From the NCBI GenBank assembly GCA_032249395.1, contig JAVVFY010000001.1, forward strand, positions 64,825-128,824: DNA of 64,000 nucleotides, in the 5' to 3' direction. This DNA comes from Candidatus Aenigmatarchaeota archaeon (lineage in GTDB: Archaea > Aenigmatarchaeota > Aenigmatarchaeia > CG10238-14 > SpSt-28). A program made the position numbers and the translations under genes. The notes beneath the pieces were generated by a model. It was given only the letters and a program-made list of their open reading frames with translations. It was not told where the DNA came from and made no database searches. Below are positions 1,481 through 61,751 of this stretch, piece by piece; the first letter of the stretch is position 1, and each line of letters starts with the position of its first letter.

Positions 1481-2290
1481 TTAAGTTTCTATTTCGCATT
1501 CTTCTACGCTTTTATCTTCTCTTATTCTAACAAAAACAGGAGCCCTCAGCTGCATATCTTCTGTAAATTCCAAAAACTTAACTTCGCAAACATACTTTGG
1601 CTTAACCCAAATCGCTTCCCTCCCTTCTGACAAGTCAAGCTTTACATTTTCTAGAGAAATAAAAGGAGTAGAAACTTTTTCTTTTTCAAGCTTTTTAATT
1701 ATTTCCTCTATTTCTTCTTTGCTAAAACCAGTGCCGATTCTTCCCAAAAACTTTAATTTTCCTTGATGGTAAGCAGCAACTAATAAACTTCCAAAATCTT
1801 CTCTTTCTCCGGCTCCAGTTGTGTAGCCAACAATAACAGCATCTAAGATATTTTCCACTTTGATTTTTAACCAGTTCTTACTTCTTTTACCTATAATAAA
1901 TTGAATCAACTTTCTTTGCCATTATTCCCTCTAATCCATTTTTCTTTGCAAACTAGAAGAGTTCTTTCCCACCTCCAATTTTATACTCTGCAATTTTTAT
2001 TCTTTCATTTTCTTCAATAGCTTTTTCTAAAATCTTTTTTCTTTCCAGCAAAGGAAAGTTTGTTAACTCTTTTCCATTTAAGAACAAAATGTCAAAAATT
2101 ATGTAGGTTGCTGGCTTTACTTTTGAAAGCAATTCTATTCTAAACTTATTATCAACGTGCTCTCTTTCCACAAACTTCCAAAAATTTTGGCTTTCAATTT
2201 TCTAGCACAACTATTTCTCTATCTAAAACGACTTCTTTTGCTTTAACAGCTTTTTTAATCGCTTCTTTTATTTCTGGATATCTATAGGAA
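1481..2290 (-). pseudogene. ATP-dependent DNA ligase, decayed and 5'-truncated
   Basis: - Fragments read YPEIKEAIKKAVKAKEVVLDREIVVLEN*KPKFLEV, then a frameshift, then VEREHV...YIIFDILFLNGKEL...KIGGGKELF*FAKKNGLEGIMAKKVDSIYY, then a frameshift, then GKRSKNWLKIK...OB-fold...CEIET*.
- There are two in-frame stops (TGA, TAG) and two frameshifts.
- The KxDG adenylation motif region is missing. Confidence 0.8.
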
Positions 2291-6363: not shown

Positions 6364-6463
6364 GCCCTGGTAGCTCAACGGTAGAGCACCCGCCTTGTAT
6401 CGCTAGTTTGACTGATGATAGCAAGCTAGCGGGGGGTTGAGGGTTCAAATCCCTCCCAGGGCT
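6364..6463 (+). tRNA. tRNA-Thr (anticodon UGU) with a 28-nt canonical 37/38 intron (about 6400-6427)
   Basis: Acceptor GCCCTGG/CCAGGGC, discriminator U, anticodon TGT at 6396-6398. BHB check: positions 32-35 (cttg) pair with intron caag (6422-6425), followed by the bulge ct|a. Confidence 0.85.
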
Positions 6464-18236: not shown

Positions 18237-18328
18237 TGGGCTCGGTGGGATTTGAACCCACGACCCCCCGCTTTCTTAGGAGCATCGCCATATAAGGCGG
18301 GTGCTCCACCAGGCTAAGCTACGAGCCC
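18237..18328 (-). tRNA. tRNA-Ile with anticodon UAU and an 18-nt canonical intron
   Basis: The reverse complement folds as GGGCTCG...CCCGC-CTTATA|tggcgatgctcctaagaa|A-GCGGG...GTGGG-TTCAAAT-CCCAC-CGAGCCC-A. BHB check: CUUA (positions 32-35) pairs with intron UAAG, followed by the bulge aa|A. Confidence 0.8.
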
Positions 18329-18384: not shown

Positions 18385-20004
18385 ATGAGGGCTTTAATAT
18401 TTATCAACTACTATTTTTTTCTTTTATTATTTATAATTTCAGTTCCTGCTTTTTCAGAGTGTTCCGGAAATCTTCAGATGTCAATAATTCCTAATCACAT
18501 ATATGGAGATGGATGGTTTACTGATCCTACGTCGATACTACTTCATTTTAGTGGCTTTAGTGGATGCCAAGGAAAATACGTTAGAATAAAAATGCCATCA
18601 GTAGAGGGCAACAGTTGCGAAAGTGGTACTTTACTTTTACATTGCGGAAATGAAACATGTTCATTTTATGTTTCTCCTCCGAATAAGCCCGGAGAATACA
18701 AGTATTATGCTTGCATAGACATGAATGGAGACAACGATTATGATGATGAAGGAGAAAGAGCAGAAGCAACTTTAATAGTTGATTCATGTATGTTTGATGT
18801 AATGACTTTTGAATTATCTCCGTCTGAAGTTTATCCTTTAGTTGATGTTAGTGCTTATATTTATTTAGTTAAATGGATAAAGTGGAACGGATATATAACT
18901 CCTTCTAAACCTAATTGTACTGGTCAAAAGGCATACATAAAGGATTATAAAGGTTGTGACGAAGGATTGACTATAGCTGAATGCACATTTGATAAAAATG
19001 AATGTTTTGCGCAATTTAGAGCACCATCTCAAGCCGGCGAATATTTGTATTATGCTTGCTTTAAGGGTTCTTCTAAAAGCAAAATTTTAAAAGTAAAAGA
19101 GTATCCAACTCCAACCCCATCTTGCGAAGGCTCAGTCAACCTATCATTATCTCCAAATCCTTCTAAAATTTTAGAGAATATAACTGCAAACATAAGCGGA
19201 TTATCAAATTGCGACTGGAAGATAGCATACGTAAAAGATTATTTGGGTTGTACAAGCGGAGAGACAATTGCTAAATGTACTTTAGGTTCATCAGGTTGCG
19301 TAACTAATTTTACAGCTCCTTCTCAAGAAGGAGAATACGGATATTATGCCTGTATAGATAAAAATGGCGATCAAGACTTCAATGATTCTGGAGAACAAAG
19401 CAACAAAGAGGTTTTAATTGTAACGCTACCAGCAAAATATTGTAAAGACGTTAGACCAGACATATTTTTACCGACAAAAAGAGTAACTTCAGAATCTAGT
19501 TTAACAGTTTCCATATATTTCAGATGTTTTGATTGGAACGTAAGTGTCAAAGATTTGGAAATTTTGTTGAAAATAGATGATTATGAATGGGGAGAATGTT
19601 TCGTCAATAATAAAAAAATATTAAGCTATTTTGGTTGGGATGGTAGTTGCGATGAGAAAAAAGATGGTAGTTGCGGGAAAGATGGTGTTTGGGTTTGCGA
19701 TTCTACATTTACTTGCAAGCATAGAGATTATGATATATGGATATCTTCAAATTTTTCTGATTACTTTTTCAATTTATCATTTTTGTGCAAACTACCTTAC
19801 TTATCTTCCGGCTATCATACTTTAGGTGTTTATGTAAAAATTTACCACAGTGAAACTTACCTTAAAGACGGAAAGGTCGCTTTTTATGTAGAAAATAGGT
19901 GGAAGGAAAAAGTTATGGAAATTTTATATCGTCCAATAAATTTTGTTGGTAATTTTGTTAAAATTTTTATAAAGATTTTTAATTTTTCAAGTAATAATGT
20001 CTAA
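18385..20004 (+). CDS. Secreted Cys-rich surface protein with internal repeats
   Basis: A signal/anchor peptide, then three copies of a roughly 110-aa module ending APSQxGEYxYYAC(I/F)DxNGDxD..., plus a Cys/Trp-rich C-terminal domain. Confidence 0.7.
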   Translation: MRALIFINYYFFLLLFIISVPAFSECSGNLQMSIIPNHIYGDGWFTDPTSILLHFSGFSGCQGKYVRIKMPSVEGNSCESGTLLLHCGNETCSFYVSPPNKPGEYKYYACIDMNGDNDYDDEGERAEATLIVDSCMFDVMTFELSPSEVYPLVDVSAYIYLVKWIKWNGYITPSKPNCTGQKAYIKDYKGCDEGLTIAECTFDKNECFAQFRAPSQAGEYLYYACFKGSSKSKILKVKEYPTPTPSCEGSVNLSLSPNPSKILENITANISGLSNCDWKIAYVKDYLGCTSGETIAKCTLGSSGCVTNFTAPSQEGEYGYYACIDKNGDQDFNDSGEQSNKEVLIVTLPAKYCKDVRPDIFLPTKRVTSESSLTVSIYFRCFDWNVSVKDLEILLKIDDYEWGECFVNNKKILSYFGWDGSCDEKKDGSCGKDGVWVCDSTFTCKHRDYDIWISSNFSDYFFNLSFLCKLPYLSSGYHTLGVYVKIYHSETYLKDGKVAFYVENRWKEKVMEILYRPINFVGNFVKIFIKIFNFSSNNV

Positions 20005-20479: not shown

Positions 20480-20575
20480 AACTACTTTTAAGTAGTTTAA
20501 ATTTAAATGTCTCTCTTAATAAAGACATCAACAAATATTTAATATTTATTGGGAGAATTTTAGAATGGTGAGAAA

Positions 20576-22935
20576 ATGAAGTTAGAGCCTAAGCTTGAGG
20601 AAATAAGGTGGAATATAGCAAAAGAAAAGGAAATACTTGAAGAATGGGCCAAGAGAAAAGTTTATAAGTTTGAATTAAATAATAAAAAAGTCTTTTCTAT
20701 AGACACGCCACCTCCCTACCCGAGACCATTTTAAATGGCGGTAATGGGAGGCCGTGGCACGTAGGTGCAGCTTCTCACTACTCTCAAATAGATATGATTG
20801 CTAGAGCAGCTCGAATGTTAGGTTTTTCTGTTTATTTTCCAATTGGTATGGATAGGAATGGAATACCGGTAGAAAGATACGCAGAAAAGAGATTTAATAT
20901 AAACATAAATTCTACTCCACGAGAAGAATTCTTAAAGTATTGTAAGATGGCTCTAGATGAACTAGAAAAAGAAATGATTGAAATAATGAAAAGACTTGGA
21001 TTAAGCGGAGATTTTGATAATTATTATAGAACCGATAGCGAAGAATACAGAGCTTTAACACAAGCAACTTTTATCGAACTTTGGAATAAGGGTTTAATTT
21101 ATTTTGATACTCGACCAAACAACTATTGCCCAGTTTGTAAAACAACTATCGCTGATGCTGAAGTTGTTTATGAGGAATTGCCGACCAAATTGGTTTATAT
21201 TAAGTTTAGAACGACAGATAATGAAGAATTCATAGTAACAACCACAAGACCAGAACTTTTATGTGCATGCCAAGCGATTTTAGTTAATCCCGAAGATTCT
21301 AGATACAAGCATTTGGTTGGTAAAAAAGCATTAATTCCACTATATAATAGAGAGGTACCAATTTTGGCACATCCTATAGTTAAAATTGATTTTGGAAGCG
21401 GAATAGAAATGGTTTGCAGTTACGGTGATTATAATGATGTTATGCTATTTAGAGAGTTAGGTTTGAAGGAAATTGTATCAATAGATGAAGACGGAAGAAT
21501 GACGGAAGCTTCAGGGAAATATGCAGGTTTAAAAGTTGAAGAGGCTAGAGAAAAAATTATTGAAGATTTAACGAATGCAGGTCTCATTGTTAAGGTAGAT
21601 GAAATAATACACAGAGTACCCACTTGCGAGAGAAGCCACAACCCCATAGAAATAATTCCTATGCAAGAGATTTACTTAAAGCAAATAGAATTTAAAGATA
21701 AGATGATGGAAATTGGAAAAGAATTAGAATTTTTGCCAGAATTTCATAGACAACTTTTATTGAATTGGATAAATTCTATAACAAGGGATTGGCCTATATC
21801 TAGGAGAAGATATTATGCAACGGAAATCCCTATTTGGTATTGTAAGAAATGTGGCAAGCCGCATATTCCAAAACCAGGAAAATATTACATCCCTTGGAAA
21901 GAGAAAGCACCATTCGAGAAATGCGATAATTGCGGTTCGGGAGAATTTTACGGAGAAACAAGAACTTTCGATACCTGGTTCGATTCTAGTATAACACCCC
22001 TATTTATCTCTAAATTTGGTAAAGACGAGCAATTCTTCAATAGAGTTTTTCCTGTAACAGTGAGACCACAAGGAAAGGATATAGTTAGGACCTGGCTATA
22101 TTATACTTTACTAAGATGTTATCAATTAACTAATAAAAGGGCATTCGAAAAAGCATGGGTTAGTGGCTATTGTGTAGATGAAAAAGGAGAGAAGATGAGC
22201 AAAAGTAAAGGAAATGTTATTGATCCTGTTCCTTTAATTGAAAAGTATGGGGCCGATGCATTTAGATTTTGGAGTGCAAGCGAATCAAGCTTAGGCTTCG
22301 ACTTTAGAGCCAGCGAAAAAAGAGTAGAAAATGCATATAAATTTATAACAAAGCTATGGAATATAGCGAGATACGTTTCTCAATTCCCGATAATAGAAGA
22401 ATTTGATGAAACAAAACTTTTGCCTAGCGATAAATGGATTTTAAGCGAGTTAAGAATAGCATATGAGAAATGTATAGATGGCTATAAGAAGTTCAATTTT
22501 TTCATTCCTTCTAATTGTATGAGAGAGTTTCTATGGAACTTATTTGCTTCTAATTATGTAGAAATGGTTAAAAAGAGGGCCTATGGTGAAGGTTTTAGCA
22601 AAGAAGAGCAAAAAGCCGCGTGGTATACTTTACATAAAGTCATGAAAATTTCTTTAAAGCTACTCGCACCAATAATACCTTTTATAACTGAGTATATTTG
22701 GCTTAAGTTGTATAGCAAAGATAGCCTTCATACTCAAAAATTCGACGATAAGATAGAGGTGGAAGACTTTTCGAAATATACTTCCATTTTATTGGAGTTT
22801 AACTCGTTAGTGTGGAGAAAGAAAAAGGAGTTAGGCATTAGCCTAAAGGAGAGAATAAAAATTGAAATTCCCGAAGAGCTAAAGATATTTGAGAATGAAC
22901 TAAGAATTATGCATAATATTGATACTTCTACTTAG
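20576..22935 (+). CDS. valS: Valyl-tRNA synthetase, reading frame interrupted at the HIGH motif
   Basis: - N-terminal 49 codons read ...VFSIDTPPPYP, then TAA at 20732-20734.
- The rest continues in the -1 frame: GRPWHVGAASHYSQIDMIARAARM..., RPQGKDIVRTW, DTWFDSS, KMSKSKGNVIDP.
- The ORF track only shows 20794..22935. Confidence 0.85.
20723..20745 (+). other. Candidate 23-nt BHB-type intervening sequence in valS
   Basis: Removing agaccattttaaatggcggtaat restores the frame (CCG|GGG). The segment caps a GC-rich helix-bulge-4 bp helix-bulge hairpin (20707-20758). See findings. Confidence 0.4.
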
Positions 22936-24371: not shown

Positions 24372-24453
24372 TTTTAAGTGGTTTTACACTACCTTTAAAA
24401 GTTTTGTATAGAAATCTATTTAAATATTTATACTGAAAGGATAAATTTACTTC

Positions 24454-24984
24454 ATGAAAGAATGGTTTTTATGCTTGATTGAGATAAAAGGGAATTTCTA
24501 TATAAATGTTGGAATTAGGAATAAGAGAATTTTTGTTCAACCGATTTTTTATCTTTTTATGAAAAAAGAAGACGCAAATGTTCTAAATGAACTTAAGAAA
24601 GAAGTTGGGGTGGGGGATATAGTAATAGGAAAAAATGCTTCATTTATTGTAAGGGGCTTCTCCAACGTTATTAAATTTATAGAAAGGATTAATGAAGAAA
24701 ACTTTATTACGAGTAAAAGAAGGGATTTTCGTTTATGGTTGGAGGCTATTAATTTGATAAAAGAGCAGAAACATATAACGAAGGAAGGTTTTCTAAGGAT
24801 TTGCGAAATTAGAGATAAAATGAACTTAAAAAAGAAAAAAAAGAATTACAAAGATAAGAAGTTTTTTGAAAAATTAATCGAGAAAGAAAATATAAAATTC
24901 GAAAACGAAGAAAGAAGAAAAAAGATTAGCAGAAGTTTAAGAGTTACTTGTGCTTTAAAAAAGAAGACTGTTAACGTTACTTAA
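24454..24984 (+). CDS. Free-standing single-motif LAGLIDADG homing-endonuclease-like protein, probably catalytically degenerate
   Basis: It matches the LAGLIDADG_1 pattern: WFLCLIEIKGNFYI ... LL..LKKEVGVGDI ... FITSKRRDFRLW ... KHITKEGFLRICEIRDKMN. The motif reads FLCLIEIKG, with Lys at the position of the catalytic Asp. Confidence 0.65.
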   Translation: MKEWFLCLIEIKGNFYINVGIRNKRIFVQPIFYLFMKKEDANVLNELKKEVGVGDIVIGKNASFIVRGFSNVIKFIERINEENFITSKRRDFRLWLEAINLIKEQKHITKEGFLRICEIRDKMNLKKKKKNYKDKKFFEKLIEKENIKFENEERRKKISRSLRVTCALKKKTVNVT

Positions 24985-25020: not shown

Positions 25021-25121
25021 GCCCGGGTGGCCGAGTGGCGAGGCAACCGGCTGCAGACTGGTATTTTGATTGAATGATAGGTAAATACCGGTTTACAGGG
25101 GTTCGAATCCCCTCCCGGGCT
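25021..25121 (+). tRNA. tRNA-Cys (anticodon GCA) with a roughly 30-nt intervening sequence of ambiguous position
   Basis: Acceptor GCCCGGG/CCCGGGC with discriminator U73 (a Cys identity element), anticodon loop CTGCAGA, T arm AGGGG-TTCGAAT-CCCCT. About 30 extra nt (around 25057-25086) are flanked by the direct repeat AC(T/C)GGT. Confidence 0.8.
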
Positions 25122-30659: not shown

Positions 30660-30992
30660 ATGGATTTTAAAGAAAAAACAATTGAAACTGTGGGGGTAAG
30701 AATCTATGTTGAGGAAAATGGTATAGAGATCGGAAGATGCTTCATCTACTTAATTAAAAATGATCTGCATGAAGAACCATATGCCTTGCTTGAAGATGTA
30801 TATGTTGATGAGAATTTTAGAGGAAAAGGAATTGGAACGGAATTGGTGAAGAGGGCAATAGAACTTGCAAGAAAATTGAATTGTTACAAAATAATTGCAA
30901 CAAGCAGGTTTGAAAGAGAAAATGTTCACGAATGGTATCAAAAACTAGGATTTAAAAAATTTGGTTATGAGTTTAGAATGGATTTAAAGTGA
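30660..30992 (+). CDS. GNAT-family N-acetyltransferase
   Basis: The acetyl-CoA binding motif is VDENFRGKGIGTELVKRAIELAR. 110 aa. Confidence 0.8.
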   Translation: MDFKEKTIETVGVRIYVEENGIEIGRCFIYLIKNDLHEEPYALLEDVYVDENFRGKGIGTELVKRAIELARKLNCYKIIATSRFERENVHEWYQKLGFKKFGYEFRMDLK

Positions 30993-31700
30993 GAAAAATA
31001 CAGACAATAATTTTAGCTGTAGGAGAAGGAGTAAGATTAAGACCTTATACTCAATTAATTCCAAAGCCCCTGATGACTATAAATGGTATTCCCTTGTTAA
31101 CTTTTCATATAGATAAATTAAACTCATTGGGAATTCCAAATGAAAAAATAATTGTTGTTGTTTCACATCTGAAAGAAGAGGGATTGTGTTTTCTCAATAG
31201 ATTTCATAAAAGAGTGAGAGTTGTTGCACAAGGGGAGAAAAAAGGTACAGCAGCTGCTGTAAGCTATGCAAAAAATCTTATCGACGATAATGAAATAGTA
31301 ATTGTTTATATTGACATAATTTTTTAAGGCGATCTTAAAGATTTTATTCGAGAAGAAAATGCTATTGGTGTTTATGAAGTTGGAGAATGTTTCTCATTTG
31401 GGTTAAATAGTTTTAGAAGATGCTTATTTAAAGGAAATTAAATAAAAAGCTGAAACCGGAAGAGTATTCATATTTGTTGGCTTAGTTAAAACGAAAAGAG
31501 AATTCTTAGAAGAAGTAGATAAAGTTAAACGAAGTGAAAAAAGTGGAGAATATTATCTGAAGTATGCTATAGTGTCTTTTAATCAGAAACATATCTTCAA
31601 AATTTATTCATTAAAGGGAAGATGGTTTGATGTAGGAAAAGAAGAAAGTCTAATAAAAGCAAGAAGAGTTTTTAATTTTCTAGACAATTCTTTTAAATGA
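30989..31700 (+). pseudogene. Sugar-1-phosphate nucleotidyltransferase (GlmU/RmlA-like N-terminal domain), decayed
   Basis: MRKIQTIILAVGEGVRLRPYT...PKPL carries the signature. Then come DIIF*GDLKDFI..YEVGE, a frameshift, NVSHLG*IVLEDAYLKEIK*KAETG...GEYYLKYAI...GRWFDVG...*. That is three in-frame TAA codons and one frameshift. The final stop overlaps the tatD ATG. Confidence 0.7.
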
Positions 31701-39205: not shown

Positions 39206-39255
39206 CTTAAATAATCAAAATCCAAAGTTTTAAACTTTAGCAAAAAATAACTTTA

Positions 39256-40731
39256 ATGGAAAAAACGCTAGAGCAAATAAGAGCAGAAAGGTTGAGAAAA
39301 CTTGAAGAGTTAAGAAAACTTGGTTTAGATCCTTTTGCTATAACAAAATATGATAAAAAGGAAAATCTAAAAGAGATTAAAGAGAGATTTGGAGAAAAGT
39401 TGAAAGCTGGAGAAAAATTAGAAAATGAAAAAGTTTCTACTGCCGGAAGAATCTTAGCAATAAGAGAACATGGTAAAGCGAGTTTTGCCGATTTGTTTGA
39501 CGGAGAAAAAATTCAAATTTGGTTCGATGAATCAACTCTTAGAGAAAAATACCAACTTTTCAAAAAGTATGTTGATATTGGAGATATTATTGGAGTAAAG
39601 GGATTTCCTTTCAAGACTATGAGAGGAGAATTAACAATTTGGGTAGAAGATTTCCAAATATTAGCAAAATCTTTAAGGCCTCTGCCATCAAAATGGTACG
39701 GATTGAAAGATGAAGATTTGAGGTACAGAATGAGATATGTTGATTTAATTGTCAATCCAAGAGCTCGAGAAATTTTGTTAACAAGAGCAAAAATTGTTAA
39801 AGCAATGAGAGAATTTCTGGAAAGCAAAGGGTTTGTTGAAATAGAAACTCCAATTTTGCAGCCAATTTATGGTGGAGCTTTTGCGAAACCATTCATCACT
39901 CATCATAACGCTTTAGATATGGATTTGTATTTGAGAATATCTGATGAGCTATATTTGAAAAGATTGATTGTTGGTGGCATAGAAAAAGTATATGAGATTG
40001 GAAGAGATTTTAGGAATGAAGGAATAGATACAAAGCACAATCCAGAATTTACGATGATGGAATGCTACTGGGCTTATGCTGATTACAATGATATAATGAA
40101 ATTGACTGAAGAAATGATTGCTTACATTGCTGAAAAAGCTATTGGCAAATTGGAAATAGAATATGCGGGACATAAAATAAACTTGAAACCACCTTGGAAG
40201 AGAATTAGAATGGTTGATGCTGTAAAAGAAGAAGGAATAGATGTAGAAAAATTGAGTAGAGAAGAGTTAATCGAAATAGCAAAAGAGAAAAAATTAGAAG
40301 TCAACGAGAATTTTAGTAAAGGTGATTTAATCAATTTGTTTTTTGAAGAGTTAGTTCAACCAAAATTGATACAACCAACTTTTGTTTATGAATATCCAAT
40401 AGAAATTTCTCCTCTTGCAAAGAAAAAAAGAGACAATCCGAATTTTGTTGAGAGGTTTGAAGGTTTTATTGCTGGTATGGAAGTTGCAAATGCTTTTTCT
40501 GAATTAAATGATCCAATAGATCAAAAAGAAAGGTTTTTAGAACAAGCGAAAAGAAGAGGTTCCGGCTTAGAATATCATGAAATGGATGAAGATTTTATTA
40601 GAGCATTAGAATATGGAATGCCTCCTACTGGCGGATTGGGAATTGGTATAGATAGGTTAACGATGATTTTGACAAATGTTCAATCGATAAGAGAAGTTAT
40701 TGCATTTCCAACTTTAAGACCGGAAAAATGA
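39256..40731 (+). CDS. lysS: Lysyl-tRNA synthetase, class II
   Basis: An OB anticodon-binding N-terminus, motif 2 [23 protein letters not shown], and motif 3 [10 protein letters not shown]. Confidence 0.95.
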
Positions 40732-40759
40732 GTTTAAAGTAAAATTTCGAATAAAAATT

Positions 40760-41764
40760 ATGAGTGTCTTCAAAAGAGAAGAAGCTTTATACCCAGAATA
40801 TTTGCCATTGAATTTACCTCATAGAGAAGGTCAGATAAAACTAATATCTGAAAATCTTTCTTTGCTATTAAAAAACAGCAAACCCATGAACATTTTCATT
40901 TATGGTCCTCCTGGTGTTGGGAAGACAGCAGTTGCGAAATTCATTTTGAGAGAATTTGAACAATATTCTGGAATAAAGAACATTTACATAAATTGCTGGC
41001 AATACAACACTTCTTTTGCTGTTCTTTCCGAAATTGGAATAGCTATTGGTGCTTTTGTTTCTAGAAGAGGGTGGGCAAAAGATGAAATATTCAGCAGAAT
41101 CGTACAAAAAATGGAAAACAACAGATTAAATTTGATTATCGTTTTAGATGAAGTTGATCAACTTATAAAAAGAGATTCAAACGTTTTATACGATTTGCTA
41201 AGAATAGAAAATTACACAAAACAGAAAATTGGTTTAATTTTTATATCGAATGACAAGTATGTTTTCAGAAATGTTGAAGATAGAATAAAAAGTAGTTTGA
41301 ATCTGGAAGAAATAGAGTTCAAACCCTATACTTTTCTAGAAATGAAGGATATTGTTGAACAAAGAATGAAAGAAGCTTTTGTTGCTTATGAAGAAGGAGT
41401 TTCCGCTTTAGTTGCTGCAAAAGCTGCTGAAAAAGGTGATGTTAGAATTGCTTTAGAGATTTTGTTGAAAGCAGGAAGAATAGCAAAAGACAAGCTAAGA
41501 GTTGAAGACGTGAAAAAAGTTATAAAGGAAGAAATTAATCCGAAAATTCAAGAAATAATGAAAGTTTTGAGCGAAGAAGAGAAAAGAATTCTCGAAATAT
41601 TGGATAAACCAAAAGCAACAAAAGAGATTTTTGAGGAATTGAAGAAAAGTGTAAGCATAAGTCGTGCAAAATTCTATAGAGTTTTAGATGAAATGATTAG
41701 AAAGGGTTTAATTAAAATTCTTGGAAAAGAAAATCGCTTATCTCTTTTGTATAAAGCTTTGTAG
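40760..41764 (+). CDS. cdc6: Orc1/Cdc6 replication initiator
   Basis: LPHREGQI, Walker A GPPGVGKT, Walker B VLDEVD, and a C-terminal winged helix. 334 aa. Confidence 0.9.
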   Translation: MSVFKREEALYPEYLPLNLPHREGQIKLISENLSLLLKNSKPMNIFIYGPPGVGKTAVAKFILREFEQYSGIKNIYINCWQYNTSFAVLSEIGIAIGAFVSRRGWAKDEIFSRIVQKMENNRLNLIIVLDEVDQLIKRDSNVLYDLLRIENYTKQKIGLIFISNDKYVFRNVEDRIKSSLNLEEIEFKPYTFLEMKDIVEQRMKEAFVAYEEGVSALVAAKAAEKGDVRIALEILLKAGRIAKDKLRVEDVKKVIKEEINPKIQEIMKVLSEEEKRILEILDKPKATKEIFEELKKSVSISRAKFYRVLDEMIRKGLIKILGKENRLSLLYKAL

Positions 41765-42005: not shown

Positions 42006-42892
42006 CTAAACTCTCGAATTAGTTGGGAAGTTTTCAATTATATAAACTGCATCTTCCAATTTTTCTCTTTTCCTTATGATTGAAGAAGAAATAAATCTCA
42101 AGAATTTTTTAACATTATTCAAACCTGAGGAGGTTAATCCATAAACTGTCTCATTCGCAGTATAAATTTTACCCCATATCTTTACTTTATGTCCTTTTTT
42201 GATTTTCGGATAAATTTTTGAAGTAATACCAAAATTATCTCTTAGCAGATTCTTCACAAATTTCAGAATTTTTATATTAGTATTAACAATACCAAAACCA
42301 ACTCTAAAATTTTTACCACATGAAATAATAGTAAATCCATCTGAATCGAATAAACCTCTAATAAAATCAGTTGGATATTCTTTTACATAATTCATTAGAT
42401 ATTCGGTTTCTTTCGAAAGAAAATGAAAGAGCATCTTATTAGAAACTGACACCACATAACCTTTTCCACCTTTACGAAGGAAACCATTTTCTGTTCTTAT
42501 TTTGTAGCCACCAGGAAAGTTTAACAACTTTGATATTTGATTTGAAAAATACTCAGCAAAATCTCTATCTTTAGTTCTAAGAATAAACTTATATTGATAA
42601 TTTTTCTTCTCATTCTTCAACGTCCCATCACCAAATAAAACTCCTATTATGTAGCTAAGCTCCTTAGAGGGGTGGGTATAAAAATTCTTAGCTGTTTGCA
42701 GGTTTTATGTCTATTAGATATCCATCGGTATATTGTCTTCTTTCTGATTAATAGATTGTATTTTTTCAAAATCTCATTCCTAATTTCTGACGACTTCAAA
42801 CCTTTTTTATTAAGAAGGAGAGCATACTCATAAATTTTCAGCCTCAAATCAATTGACAATTTTCTGACATCAATCTCTTTCATTTTAATCAT
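42006..42892 (-). pseudogene. Free-standing double-motif LAGLIDADG homing endonuclease with an N-terminal HTH, frameshifted
   Basis: The N-terminal part (42647..42892) ends ...IYRWISNRHKTCKQLR... The -1 frame continues ...FYTHPSKELSYIIGVLFGDGTLKNEKK...FIRGLFDSDGFT... Both LAGLIDADG motifs are intact. The single frameshift lies near an A4/T5 run. Confidence 0.7.
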
Positions 42893-60722: not shown

Positions 60723-61751
60723 ATGTACTCAAAAGTGCGCAATAATGAAGATGAAATTTATGATAATCTTGAGACAGAATTGATAGAGAGAATAAGAAGA
60801 CTTCAATATGAGTATACTAGAAGCGAGGAGAAGAAGAAAGAATTTGTTGATAGTTTAAAAGAGTTAATAAGTATTTTAGGAAATAGAGGCGATTATCATG
60901 GTCTAATAGAAATTGCACAAGGAATATACGAAGAAGTTCATCATATACCACAAGAAATAAGAGAAGAAGCAGCATATTTAGCTAGTGATATGGTATCTAG
61001 CATAGGTCGTTGTGATATTTTAGTCCAACACATTTTTATTAACAGTGGATATCCCAAAGAGAATAGAGTTAAAAAATACTATTTGAGTATTTGCCTAGAA
61101 AATGTCGCACTTAAAGGAGATCATCTTCACCTTGTGAAGTATTTAGAAGATCCTAATATAAATATATATTTAGACCAACAAACACAAGATAAAGCTAGAG
61201 AAATATTACTTCCAAATGCAATAAAGGAGGATATTATTAAGAGTTTAGAAGATGGTGATTTCATACGTCTTACTCGGATTGCAAGCGGAAGTTATAATTA
61301 TATTCCACAAAGTCTTAGAGAGTTAGCACGAAAAAGTATAGAATCGGCAGCTAGTAGAAAGTTAGAACTTTTAAAGGAAAAAGTTAGAAGCCATCCAGAA
61401 ACTATAGAGACATTCCACTCGTTATTATACCTTTTATTCAATCCATATATTCCTCAATATTTCAAAGAAAAGTTTCTAGAAGAAATAATCTCCGGACCTT
61501 ATGAAGTAAAATCAAAAATAAAAGATTTTCTAAAAGAATTACAAAATATTGTTGAAAAATATAGAAGAAGTTGCTCAGAGGATAACAGGGTAAATCGTTG
61601 TTTGAAGAATATAGCTCGAGAGCTGTTTCAAAAATACGATTATACGAGTTTGTGGTCTGATTTGGATTCCATTTACGAGTATACTAAAGATGAACTTACT
61701 AGAGTTTTTGATGAATTAGAAAGTTTAATAAAAAATTATGAAAGTTTGTAA
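60723..61751 (+). CDS. Hypothetical all-helical protein
   Basis: 342 aa ORF. I recognise no motif. Confidence 0.55.
   Translation: MYSKVRNNEDEIYDNLETELIERIRRLQYEYTRSEEKKKEFVDSLKELISILGNRGDYHGLIEIAQGIYEEVHHIPQEIREEAAYLASDMVSSIGRCDILVQHIFINSGYPKENRVKKYYLSICLENVALKGDHLHLVKYLEDPNINIYLDQQTQDKAREILLPNAIKEDIIKSLEDGDFIRLTRIASGSYNYIPQSLRELARKSIESAASRKLELLKEKVRSHPETIETFHSLLYLLFNPYIPQYFKEKFLEEIISGPYEVKSKIKDFLKELQNIVEKYRRSCSEDNRVNRCLKNIARELFQKYDYTSLWSDLDSIYEYTKDELTRVFDELESLIKNYESL

Follow-up and report, generated by a model that had tools for sequence, protein, structure and literature searches.

What interrupts the valyl-tRNA synthetase (ValRS) gene of an aenigmatarchaeal genome in the middle of its catalytic signature, and how could the enzyme still be made? 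The gene in question, valS, lies on a 64,000-nt stretch of contig JAVVFY010000001.1 (the whole stretch is called the window in what follows; about 31% G+C), whose best genome matches in a GTDB genome scan are metagenome-assembled genomes of Candidatus Aenigmatarchaeota (DPANN), 82-84% identical and all of them intronless. Its first open reading frame (ORF) runs into a stop codon inside the class I signature (the HIGH region), and the remainder of the synthetase lies in a different frame, which stays open from about 20746 to 22935 and includes KMSKS. This split, with its frame-1 stop at 20732-20734, had been described in an initial annotation of the DNA and is confirmed by the ORFs; the same annotation took the break for a bulge-helix-bulge (BHB) intron. 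Comparison with relatives supports an intron at the HIGH region well, but with boundaries that differ by 3 nt from those first proposed: the valS pre-mRNA likely carries a 20-nt BHB-type intron (20725-20744), which would be cut out by the tRNA-splicing endonuclease, the exons being joined by tRNA ligase. We infer the cutting enzyme, the exact cut sites, which rest on protein conservation, and splicing itself.

A protein search with the repaired ValRS retrieved close homologues of two classes, namely full-length proteins of 774-802 aa and shorter ones of 706-715 aa that start with MIARAARM or MLG..., like the broken window gene. DNA was fetched for 12 clusters of the shortened proteins, and one more locus, L084, came from a scan of metagenome DNA with ValRS alignment, among the matches listed, which were mostly distant relatives. 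Aligning valS of close relatives, a check suggested in the initial annotation, revealed an insert at the identical codon position in all 15 fetched related loci, which derive from about 13 separate samples or assemblies (JGI, ENA and Logan), the other loci being uninterrupted. In the other archaeal valS loci that were fetched, the spacing of PPPYP and WH is exactly 12 nt in 100 and 9 nt in 53, and the insert is absent from all of them. The presence of a homologous insert in about 13 independent assemblies excludes both an assembly error and private decay of the window copy.

The inserts are 20, 21 or 31 nt long (Table 1) and therefore not consistently a multiple of three. Every variant holds a stop codon of the exon-1 frame within its hairpin loop (TAA, or TAG in L166; within 20731-20735 in the window), and this stop is also kept in the 21-nt variants, whose length would otherwise permit in-frame read-through. 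Among the related inserts the loop CUUAAA hardly varies, and the intron is much more conserved than synonymous sites: the window and L169 are identical at 20 of 20 intron positions at a proportion of synonymous differences (pS) of 0.24, and L161 and L163 differ at 1 of 21 at a pS of 0.49. The consensus insert pattern, which matches the 15 fetched relatives, occurs once in the window, against 0.00 matches expected. A scan of viral contigs gave 0 matches to the valS insert pattern, and Rfam, searched at a permissive threshold over 20550-20900, returned no match.

On both sides of the insert the gene bears the marks of selection. Once the insert is removed between AG and T, every allele with the whole gene on its contig yields an intact ORF, 779-801 codons long when measured from the upstream stop; L166, which begins at a contig end, stands outside this count. 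Exon 1 is open in 14 of the 14 insert-bearing relatives that include it. The spliced window product matches PF00133 (tRNA-synt_1, E 4e-74) and PF08264 (Anticodon_1, E 9e-30) in Pfam, and the features of a class Ia ValRS are all present (the HIGH region as WHVGAA, KMSKS and the anticodon-binding domain). The form HVGA had at first been considered atypical, whereas all close intact homologues read WH(V/I)GAA, which is thus the norm of the clade. The ratio of nonsynonymous to synonymous substitution rates (dN/dS) is 0.04-0.09 among intron-bearing alleles, with dS near or beyond saturation, and stands at the same level, 0.06, between intron-bearing and intronless alleles. Moreover, no usable start codon is present in the 16 codons that follow the insert up to the first in-frame Met (GRPWHVGAASHYSQID), and their ratio of nonsynonymous to synonymous proportions (pN/pS) is 0.07; such strong constraint on start-less codons implies that they are translated in continuity with exon 1. 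The insert interrupts an otherwise intact ORF under selection, and its excision would be required to encode the conserved protein.

Two explanations that dispense with any special processing can be weighed on this evidence. One of them is that valS is a decaying pseudogene, or that the break is an assembly or sequencing artefact. The initial annotation had cautioned that the genome carries other pseudogenes, and genuinely decayed genes do exist in the window (a DNA ligase at 1481-2201 and an NTP-transferase at 30977-31700); these, however, carry several unstructured lesions, unlike valS, in which the insert is the sole lesion and is shared, nearly unchanged, with relatives whose coding sequence is constrained. 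Conservation of the insert and the low dN/dS effectively refute decay or artefact, which we find hardly credible, and the break in valS is real. The other, to which we attach the least probability of all, is a split gene, in which an N-terminal peptide of 52 aa would assemble with a separately made protein of 713 aa that begins at Met 20794, as the products of split genes do in Nanoarchaeum. Gene callers do annotate exactly these two ORFs, separately, in all relatives, and all 12 insert-bearing relatives found by protein are annotated as valS minus its first 66-73 residues. Against such an arrangement, the constrained codons of the HIGH motif lie without a start between the stop and the first Met, and the split would fall within the nucleotide-binding signature.

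The position of the exon borders can be read from the protein. In the 100 intronless loci with 12-nt spacing, PPPYP and WH are separated by TCN/AGY GGN NNN NNN (Ser-Gly-x-x), and the close intact homologues read PPPYPSG(K/R)PWH(V/I)GAA. Removal of the 20 nt 20725-20744 joins CCG AG↓T GGG AGG (the arrow marking the splice point here and below) and yields PPPYPSGRPWHVGAA, identical to the intact homologues P0015, P0016 and P0029. The same excision rule gives PSGRPWH or PSGAVWH in all relatives, the latter being what the intronless L008 and L009 encode, and the AG on the 5' side of the insert and the T on its 3' side are invariant. In silico, cuts after the second bulge base on either side (20724 and 20744) are exactly those that restore the consensus PPPYPSGRPWH in all variants. 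We place the intron at 20725-20744 because its excision restores the conserved Ser.

The boundaries originally put forward would instead remove 23 nt (20723-20745) by way of a UACC/GGUA central helix with bulges CGA and AU, predicting a junction of ...CCCUACCCG with GGGAGG that reads CCGGGG and a product PPPYP-GRPWH without Ser. The 23 nt quoted and every pairing listed for them match the sequence; this register is 95% paired across the 10 distinct variant sequences, forms a perfect 4-bp central helix stacked directly on the outer helix in the window, and restores the reading frame in all variants (by removal of 23, 24 or 34 nt). The product, however, would lack the Ser found in every intronless relative with this spacing, and a signature loop of constant length across 100 fetched intronless loci would be one residue shorter; AG...T always rebuilds the Ser codon present in the homologues. 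Furthermore, the pair A20718-U20742 is lost without possible compensation in 3 of the 10 variants, and the 3' bulge is just 2 nt. The signatures of class Ia synthetases keep a small polar residue before Gly (PYPSG, PYANG, PNVTG), which also counts against the 23-nt excision. Since both pairing registers fit the alignment equally, covariation cannot choose between them and it is only the coding argument that separates them; it makes the 23-nt boundaries most likely wrong, and we hold a BHB intron of that extent to be unlikely.

With the 20-nt boundaries, RNAalifold on 10 distinct sequences and minimum free energy (MFE) folds of six variants gave one architecture (Table 1), which in these models is a relaxed BHB motif with flanking helices, h and h', on both sides. 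Four 'pairs' lie between two unpaired triplets, each of them 3' of its helix strand. The outer helix (6 + 3 bp) is 92-95% paired and the inner helix (4-9 bp) 100% paired in the 10 variants; in the favoured register 92% of cells are paired, as against 31-52% when the 3' partners are slid. Double-sided changes affect 3 of the 4 aligned pairs of the inner stem (CG/UA, GC/AU), the observed covariation score being reached by 0 of 500 shuffles, and L166 possesses an unrelated 9-bp stem at the same place. The central pairs CCG/CGG are kept in 9-10 of the 10 variants; the fourth central pair, 20719:20742, is a mismatch in seven and U-A, U-G or C-G in three. At the 5' site, the alifold consensus and three of the six MFE folds (window, L161 and L163) show AG↓N as a clean 3-nt bulge, which the other three folds open or shift. 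At the 3' site, the bases of the triplet AA↓U do not pair, but 2-3 further unpaired bases (UA[Y]) lie across from them, forming the internal loop that makes the motif a relaxed one. The hairpin alone folds at -22.9 kcal/mol, which is only modestly better than shuffled sequences (z -1.6 to -2.3).

The codons that would build the outer helix differ in their usage between nine intron-bearing and 32 intronless alleles. The second Pro is CCT in 9/9 intron-bearing against 12/32 intronless alleles, the third Pro CCC in 8/9 against 8/32, and the Pro before Ser CCG in 8/9 against 1/32; Ser is AGT in 9/9 against 0/32 (which use TCN, with one AGC), Gly GGG in 9/9 against 7/32, and the next codon AGG in 8/9 against 11/32. 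Sites left unpaired by the model vary freely even in the intron-bearing alleles: TAC and TAT both encode the Tyr (5:4), and each of the four CCN codons occurs for the internal-loop Pro. Judging from these counts, the synonymous sites of the outer-helix codons are fixed only in insert-bearing alleles. A generic scan for BHB geometry joining two long open frames that are broken in unspliced DNA placed the valS site at the top of the 64-kb window (score 38; next best 32), and in 189 kb of related loci a score of at least 36 was reached only by the valS inserts. Two other candidates, at 28229-28196 on the minus strand and at 60980-61007 (scores 31 and 29), lie inside continuous ORFs and were dismissed as chance matches, and a BHB scan without the coding-context filter was far too permissive in AT-rich DNA.

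Conserved structure and variable length also bear on translational recoding, whereby ribosomes would cross the break by bypassing (hopping), or by a frameshift together with stop read-through, and no RNA would be spliced. A stop codon and a stem-loop right after the take-off point are in line with this idea, and they recall T4 gene 60. Yet matching take-off and landing codons are absent around 20720-20748, one rule cannot fit inserts of 20, 21 and 31 nt, and what is conserved corresponds to a BHB, in which two unpaired triplets are separated by four pairs and flanked on either side by helices; in variants whose first intron base is A, the Ser codon arises only upon excision. Recoding is, in our opinion, very unlikely.

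Machinery able to remove a BHB intron can be expected in this organism. Of the window's five tRNA genes, three have clean BHB introns at position 37/38; those of tRNA-Thr and tRNA-Ile had been recognized from the start and are borne out, and tRNA-Cys(GCA) adds a third. As these three genes need BHB splicing, the splicing machinery should be active in the host. The tRNA-Cys intron shares with valS the AG↓A 5' bulge as well as a mismatch at the outer central pair, which in tRNA-Cys is C.A, and the 3' AA↓N of valS resembles the second bulge of tRNA-Ile (AA↓A). ARAGORN missed the tRNA-Thr(UGU) intron, which Rfam found, and wrongly called a 'tRNA-Thr(GGT)' at 25021-25121, where splicing at the BHB gives tRNA-Cys(GCA) with discriminator U.

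Several points speak against a spliced 20-nt intron. The evidence for it consists of sequence comparisons. The motif is not a strict hBHBh', the window having three Watson-Crick central pairs and UA opposite the 3' bulge, and the alternative 23-nt register pairs equally well. The z-scores of single-sequence folds are modest (-1.4 to -2.9 among the variants), and the compensatory changes stem from few independent lineages, with about 4-5 distinct stems. Finally, no credible endonuclease gene was found in the 64-kb window by tblastn with an M. jannaschii EndA sequence, which is a weak test.

If the 20-nt intron is spliced as we propose, the Pro-Pro and Gly-Arg codons that flank it would pair into the GC-rich outer helix of the pre-mRNA, and the central helix of 3-4 bp (CCG/CGG), the AG↓A bulge, the inner hairpin and the 3' loop AA↓U would complete the relaxed BHB. 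The tRNA-splicing endonuclease would then cut after the second unpaired base on each side, and tRNA ligase would join the exons (CCG AG↓U GGG) to encode PPYP-S-GRPWHVGAA, an intact class I signature. Translation of unspliced mRNA would end at the hairpin-loop stop and produce the 52-aa peptide only; in the 21-nt variants, the loop stop may block the synthesis of a ValRS bearing seven extra residues in its active-site loop. The spliced message is predicted to lack 20 nt and to read ...CCCUACCCGAG joined to UGGGAGGCC (also written CCCUACCCGAG joined to UGGGAGGCCGUGG), with CCGAGUGGG as the junction sequence and VFSIDTPPPYPSGRPWHVGAASHYSQIDMIAR as the junction-spanning peptide.

Table 1. Features of the valS locus and of the window, and the insert variants of relatives. 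Coordinates are window positions unless a locus is named; inserts are written as first base, stem, loop, stem, central helix strand and bulge; arrows mark splice points, which are predicted ones in valS.
Feature	Position	Strand	Description
Interrupted valS ORF	ATG 20576 to TAA 20732-20734	+	52 aa, reading ...VFSIDTPPPYPRPF
valS exon 1	20576..20724	+	ATG, 49 codons (M...IDTPPPYP) and AG, the first two bases of the Ser codon
Putative valS intron	20725..20744	+	20 nt, ACCAUUUUAAAUGGCGGUAA; same-site inserts in 15 relatives; excision would give a 779-aa ValRS
valS exon 2	20745..22935	+	T completing AGT (Ser), then GRPWHVGAASHYSQID...KMSKS..., to the stop codon
Outer helix h, 5' strand	20708..20716	+	CCA (20708-20710) and CCUCCC (20711-20716); Pro codons
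UAC, unpaired in consensus	20717..20719	+	Faces the 3' splice-site loop; here the motif is relaxed
Central helix H, 5' strand	20720..20722	+	CCG; pairs with 20739-20741
5' three-base bulge AG↓A	20723..20725	+	Predicted cut after 20724; bulge in MFE and alifold
Inner hairpin h'	20726..20738	+	CCAUU/AAUGG, loop UUA; stop TAA 20732-20734
Central helix H, 3' strand	20739..20741	+	CGG; from pairing and RNAalifold
3' splice-site loop U AA↓U	20742..20745	+	Predicted cut after 20744; unpaired in MFE and alifold
Outer helix h, 3' strand	20746..20757	+	GGGAGG (20746-20751), internal loop CCG, UGG (20755-20757); Gly-Arg-Pro-Trp codons
Insert of window, L168, L169			20 nt; A CCAUU UUA AAUGG CGGU AA
Insert of L161, L170, L173-175			21 nt; A CCGG CUUAAA CCGG CGGU AA
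Insert of L163, L165, L171			21 nt; U CCGG CUUAAA CCGG CGGU AA; L164 and L172 with loop AUUAAA
Insert of L162			21 nt; A UUGG CUUAAA CCAA CGGA AA
Insert of L084			21 nt; A CCAG CUUAAA CUGG CGGG AA
Insert of L166			31 nt; U UCAGUCUAG AGUUCC CUAGACUGA CGGG AA
tRNA-Thr(UGU)	6364-6463	+	28-nt intron; central helix CUUG/CAAG; bulges UA↓U, CU↓A
tRNA-Ile(UAU)	18237-18328	-	18-nt intron; central helix CUUA/UAAG; bulges UA↓U, AA↓A
tRNA-Cys(GCA)	25021-25121	+	30-nt intron; central helix CUGC/GUAA; bulges AG↓A, AU↓A
LAGLIDADG_1-type ORF	24445-24984	+	Free-standing; adjoins tRNA-Cys
LAGLIDADG_3-type ORF	42006-42704	-	Free-standing; at about 42 kb
LAGLIDADG ORFs near valS in relatives	L168 6631-7167; L001 5346-5858; L002 4291-4803; L173 1-792; L170 2-124		

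The distribution of the intron among alleles is mosaic. In the ValRS tree, intron-bearing alleles occur in at least three places, interleaved with intronless ones, and the presence of the intron tracks the exon-1 haplotype, over about 150 nt upstream, rather than the phylogeny of exon 2. Over 900 nt of exon 2, the two intronless alleles L001 and L002 show an identity of 0.90-0.94 with the intron-bearing group, and their exon 1 has the haplotype of L081 and L003, which are intronless as well and more distant. Informative sites of L002 that resemble the intron-bearing alleles and those that resemble L081/L003 stand at 4:19 upstream and at 53:4 downstream (Fisher p 5e-11), and L001 displays the same upstream/downstream contrast (Fisher p 3e-10). 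The divergent patch extends from about -1 to -150, with a recombination breakpoint within about 30 nt of the intron site. These mosaics imply that loss or gain of the intron accompanied homologous replacement of the upstream exon, in either direction. A wide two-sided co-conversion tract was rejected, as the elevated identity among intron-bearing alleles on the 3' side is confined to about 30 nt and the divergent patch is found on the 5' side only. In L084, a stretch of 54 nt hints at a transfer between deeper lineages.

ORFs of the LAGLIDADG type are found free-standing in the window and near valS in relatives (Table 1), those of L173 and L170 lying immediately 5' of exon 1. Such ORFs do not track the presence of the intron, occurring beside the intronless L001 and L002 as well as beside intron-bearing alleles. 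One might only tentatively picture the valS intron as a mobile BHB element that is spread and purged between Aenigmatarchaeota lineages by homologous recombination together with about 150 nt of upstream exon, possibly aided by LAGLIDADG proteins, and we think this rather improbable. Were it true, the loop stop and a position 147 nt into the mRNA would tie ValRS synthesis to the capacity for tRNA splicing; active mobility and a regulatory role of the intron are speculation.

The other broken genes of the window were also considered as candidates for BHB interruption. The fragments of an ATP-dependent DNA ligase at 1481-2201 (minus strand) match DNA_ligase_A_C and positions 97-160 of DNA_ligase_A_M, and are broken by a 1-nt frameshift and by a TAG in frame. 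Conserved ligase residues span these breaks, and we regard the gene as a genuine pseudogene or remnant rather than one with an intron. The nucleotidyl-transferase at 30977-31700 (plus strand) covers only positions 2-108 of 245 of NTP_transferase and has a TAA at 31325-31327, a frameshift and more stops, which fall inside conserved residues, as in a decayed gene. An intact class II tRNA synthetase of the aspartyl/asparaginyl/lysyl type (39241-40731, plus strand) adjoins a Cdc6/Orc1-type AAA ATPase (40718-41764, plus strand) and shows that other synthetase genes in the window are uninterrupted. Upstream of valS, at 18385-20004 (plus strand), is encoded a 539-aa Cys-rich protein with a hydrophobic N-terminus and 3-4 internal repeats (...C.GQKAYIKDY.GC..G.TIA.CT...); its counterpart in L169, which is cut by the end of the locus, has no precomputed Pfam match.

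A valS intron of this kind would imply that mRNA splicing by the tRNA endonuclease is not a crenarchaeal oddity. The variants found in nature already serve as a mutational analysis of the motif, and the site offers a compact natural substrate on which the handling of relaxed motifs by DPANN endonucleases could be probed. Gain and loss of such introns can be studied directly in the recombinant alleles, whose breakpoint falls at the intron site. There is also a practical side, in that split or truncated annotation of intron-bearing genes distorts estimates of completeness and of pseudogene content for reduced genomes.

How does the valS intron compare with known systems? A pre-mRNA intron in cbf5, the pseudouridine synthase gene, of Crenarchaeota was reportedly described by Watanabe in 2002 and by Yoshinari in 2006. 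Introns of cbf5 pre-mRNA often have relaxed BHB motifs (Yokobori 2009, PMC2738675), and a 2020 paper gives cbf5 as the sole example within a coding sequence, besides its own intron in the 5' untranslated region of Haloferax HVO_1309 (PMC7714728); endonuclease papers of 2018 and 2025 cite no further BHB intron in coding sequence. The great rarity of coding BHB introns asserted in the initial annotation agrees with the searchable literature, which has cbf5 in Crenarchaeota alone and in which, subscription-only papers lying outside it, no earlier report of a BHB intron in valS was found. On comparative grounds, valS is very probably a second type of archaeal protein gene, after cbf5, with a coding sequence that has to be spliced at the mRNA level.

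Like the canonical tRNA introns at position 37/38, whose motif is the strict hBHBh', the valS intron presents unpaired triplets on opposite strands, four pairs apart, with cuts expected after the second base, and the tRNA introns of the window have similar bulges (AG↓A in Cys, AA↓A in Ile) and a similar size (18-30 nt). Unlike them, it resides in an mRNA, its helices are built from codons, and its 3' site is not a clean bulge but part of an internal loop (2x3 or 3x4). The intron of the HVO_1309 mRNA of Haloferax volcanii (PMC7714728) is a substrate of the splicing endonuclease outside tRNA and rRNA, as valS would be, but it is located in an untranslated leader and leaves the reading frame uninterrupted, whereas in valS the reading frame itself is broken. 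Group I introns and inteins that move by homing offer another parallel, since here, too, alleles differ in a flanking exon tract that ends at the insertion site, with LAGLIDADG ORFs nearby; the valS intron, however, encodes nothing, is far too small for a ribozyme, and has LAGLIDADG ORFs beside both types of allele. The closest resemblance is to the cbf5 intron, which is also short, lies inside coding sequence, has a BHB-type and often relaxed fold at its borders, is patchily distributed among related lineages ('gain and loss') and presumably relies on the endonuclease and ligase of tRNA splicing. For cbf5, splicing has been demonstrated by experiment, and that of valS is inferred from sequence. 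The two differ further in host and context: cbf5 introns belong to TACK archaea, while the valS intron is found in Aenigmatarchaeota (DPANN), interrupts an essential class I aminoacyl-tRNA synthetase within its HIGH signature, measures 20-31 nt, keeps an in-frame stop in its loop, and is linked in its presence to a recombinant patch of the upstream exon. The valS intron would be an independent instance of the cbf5 kind and not a homologue of the cbf5 intron.

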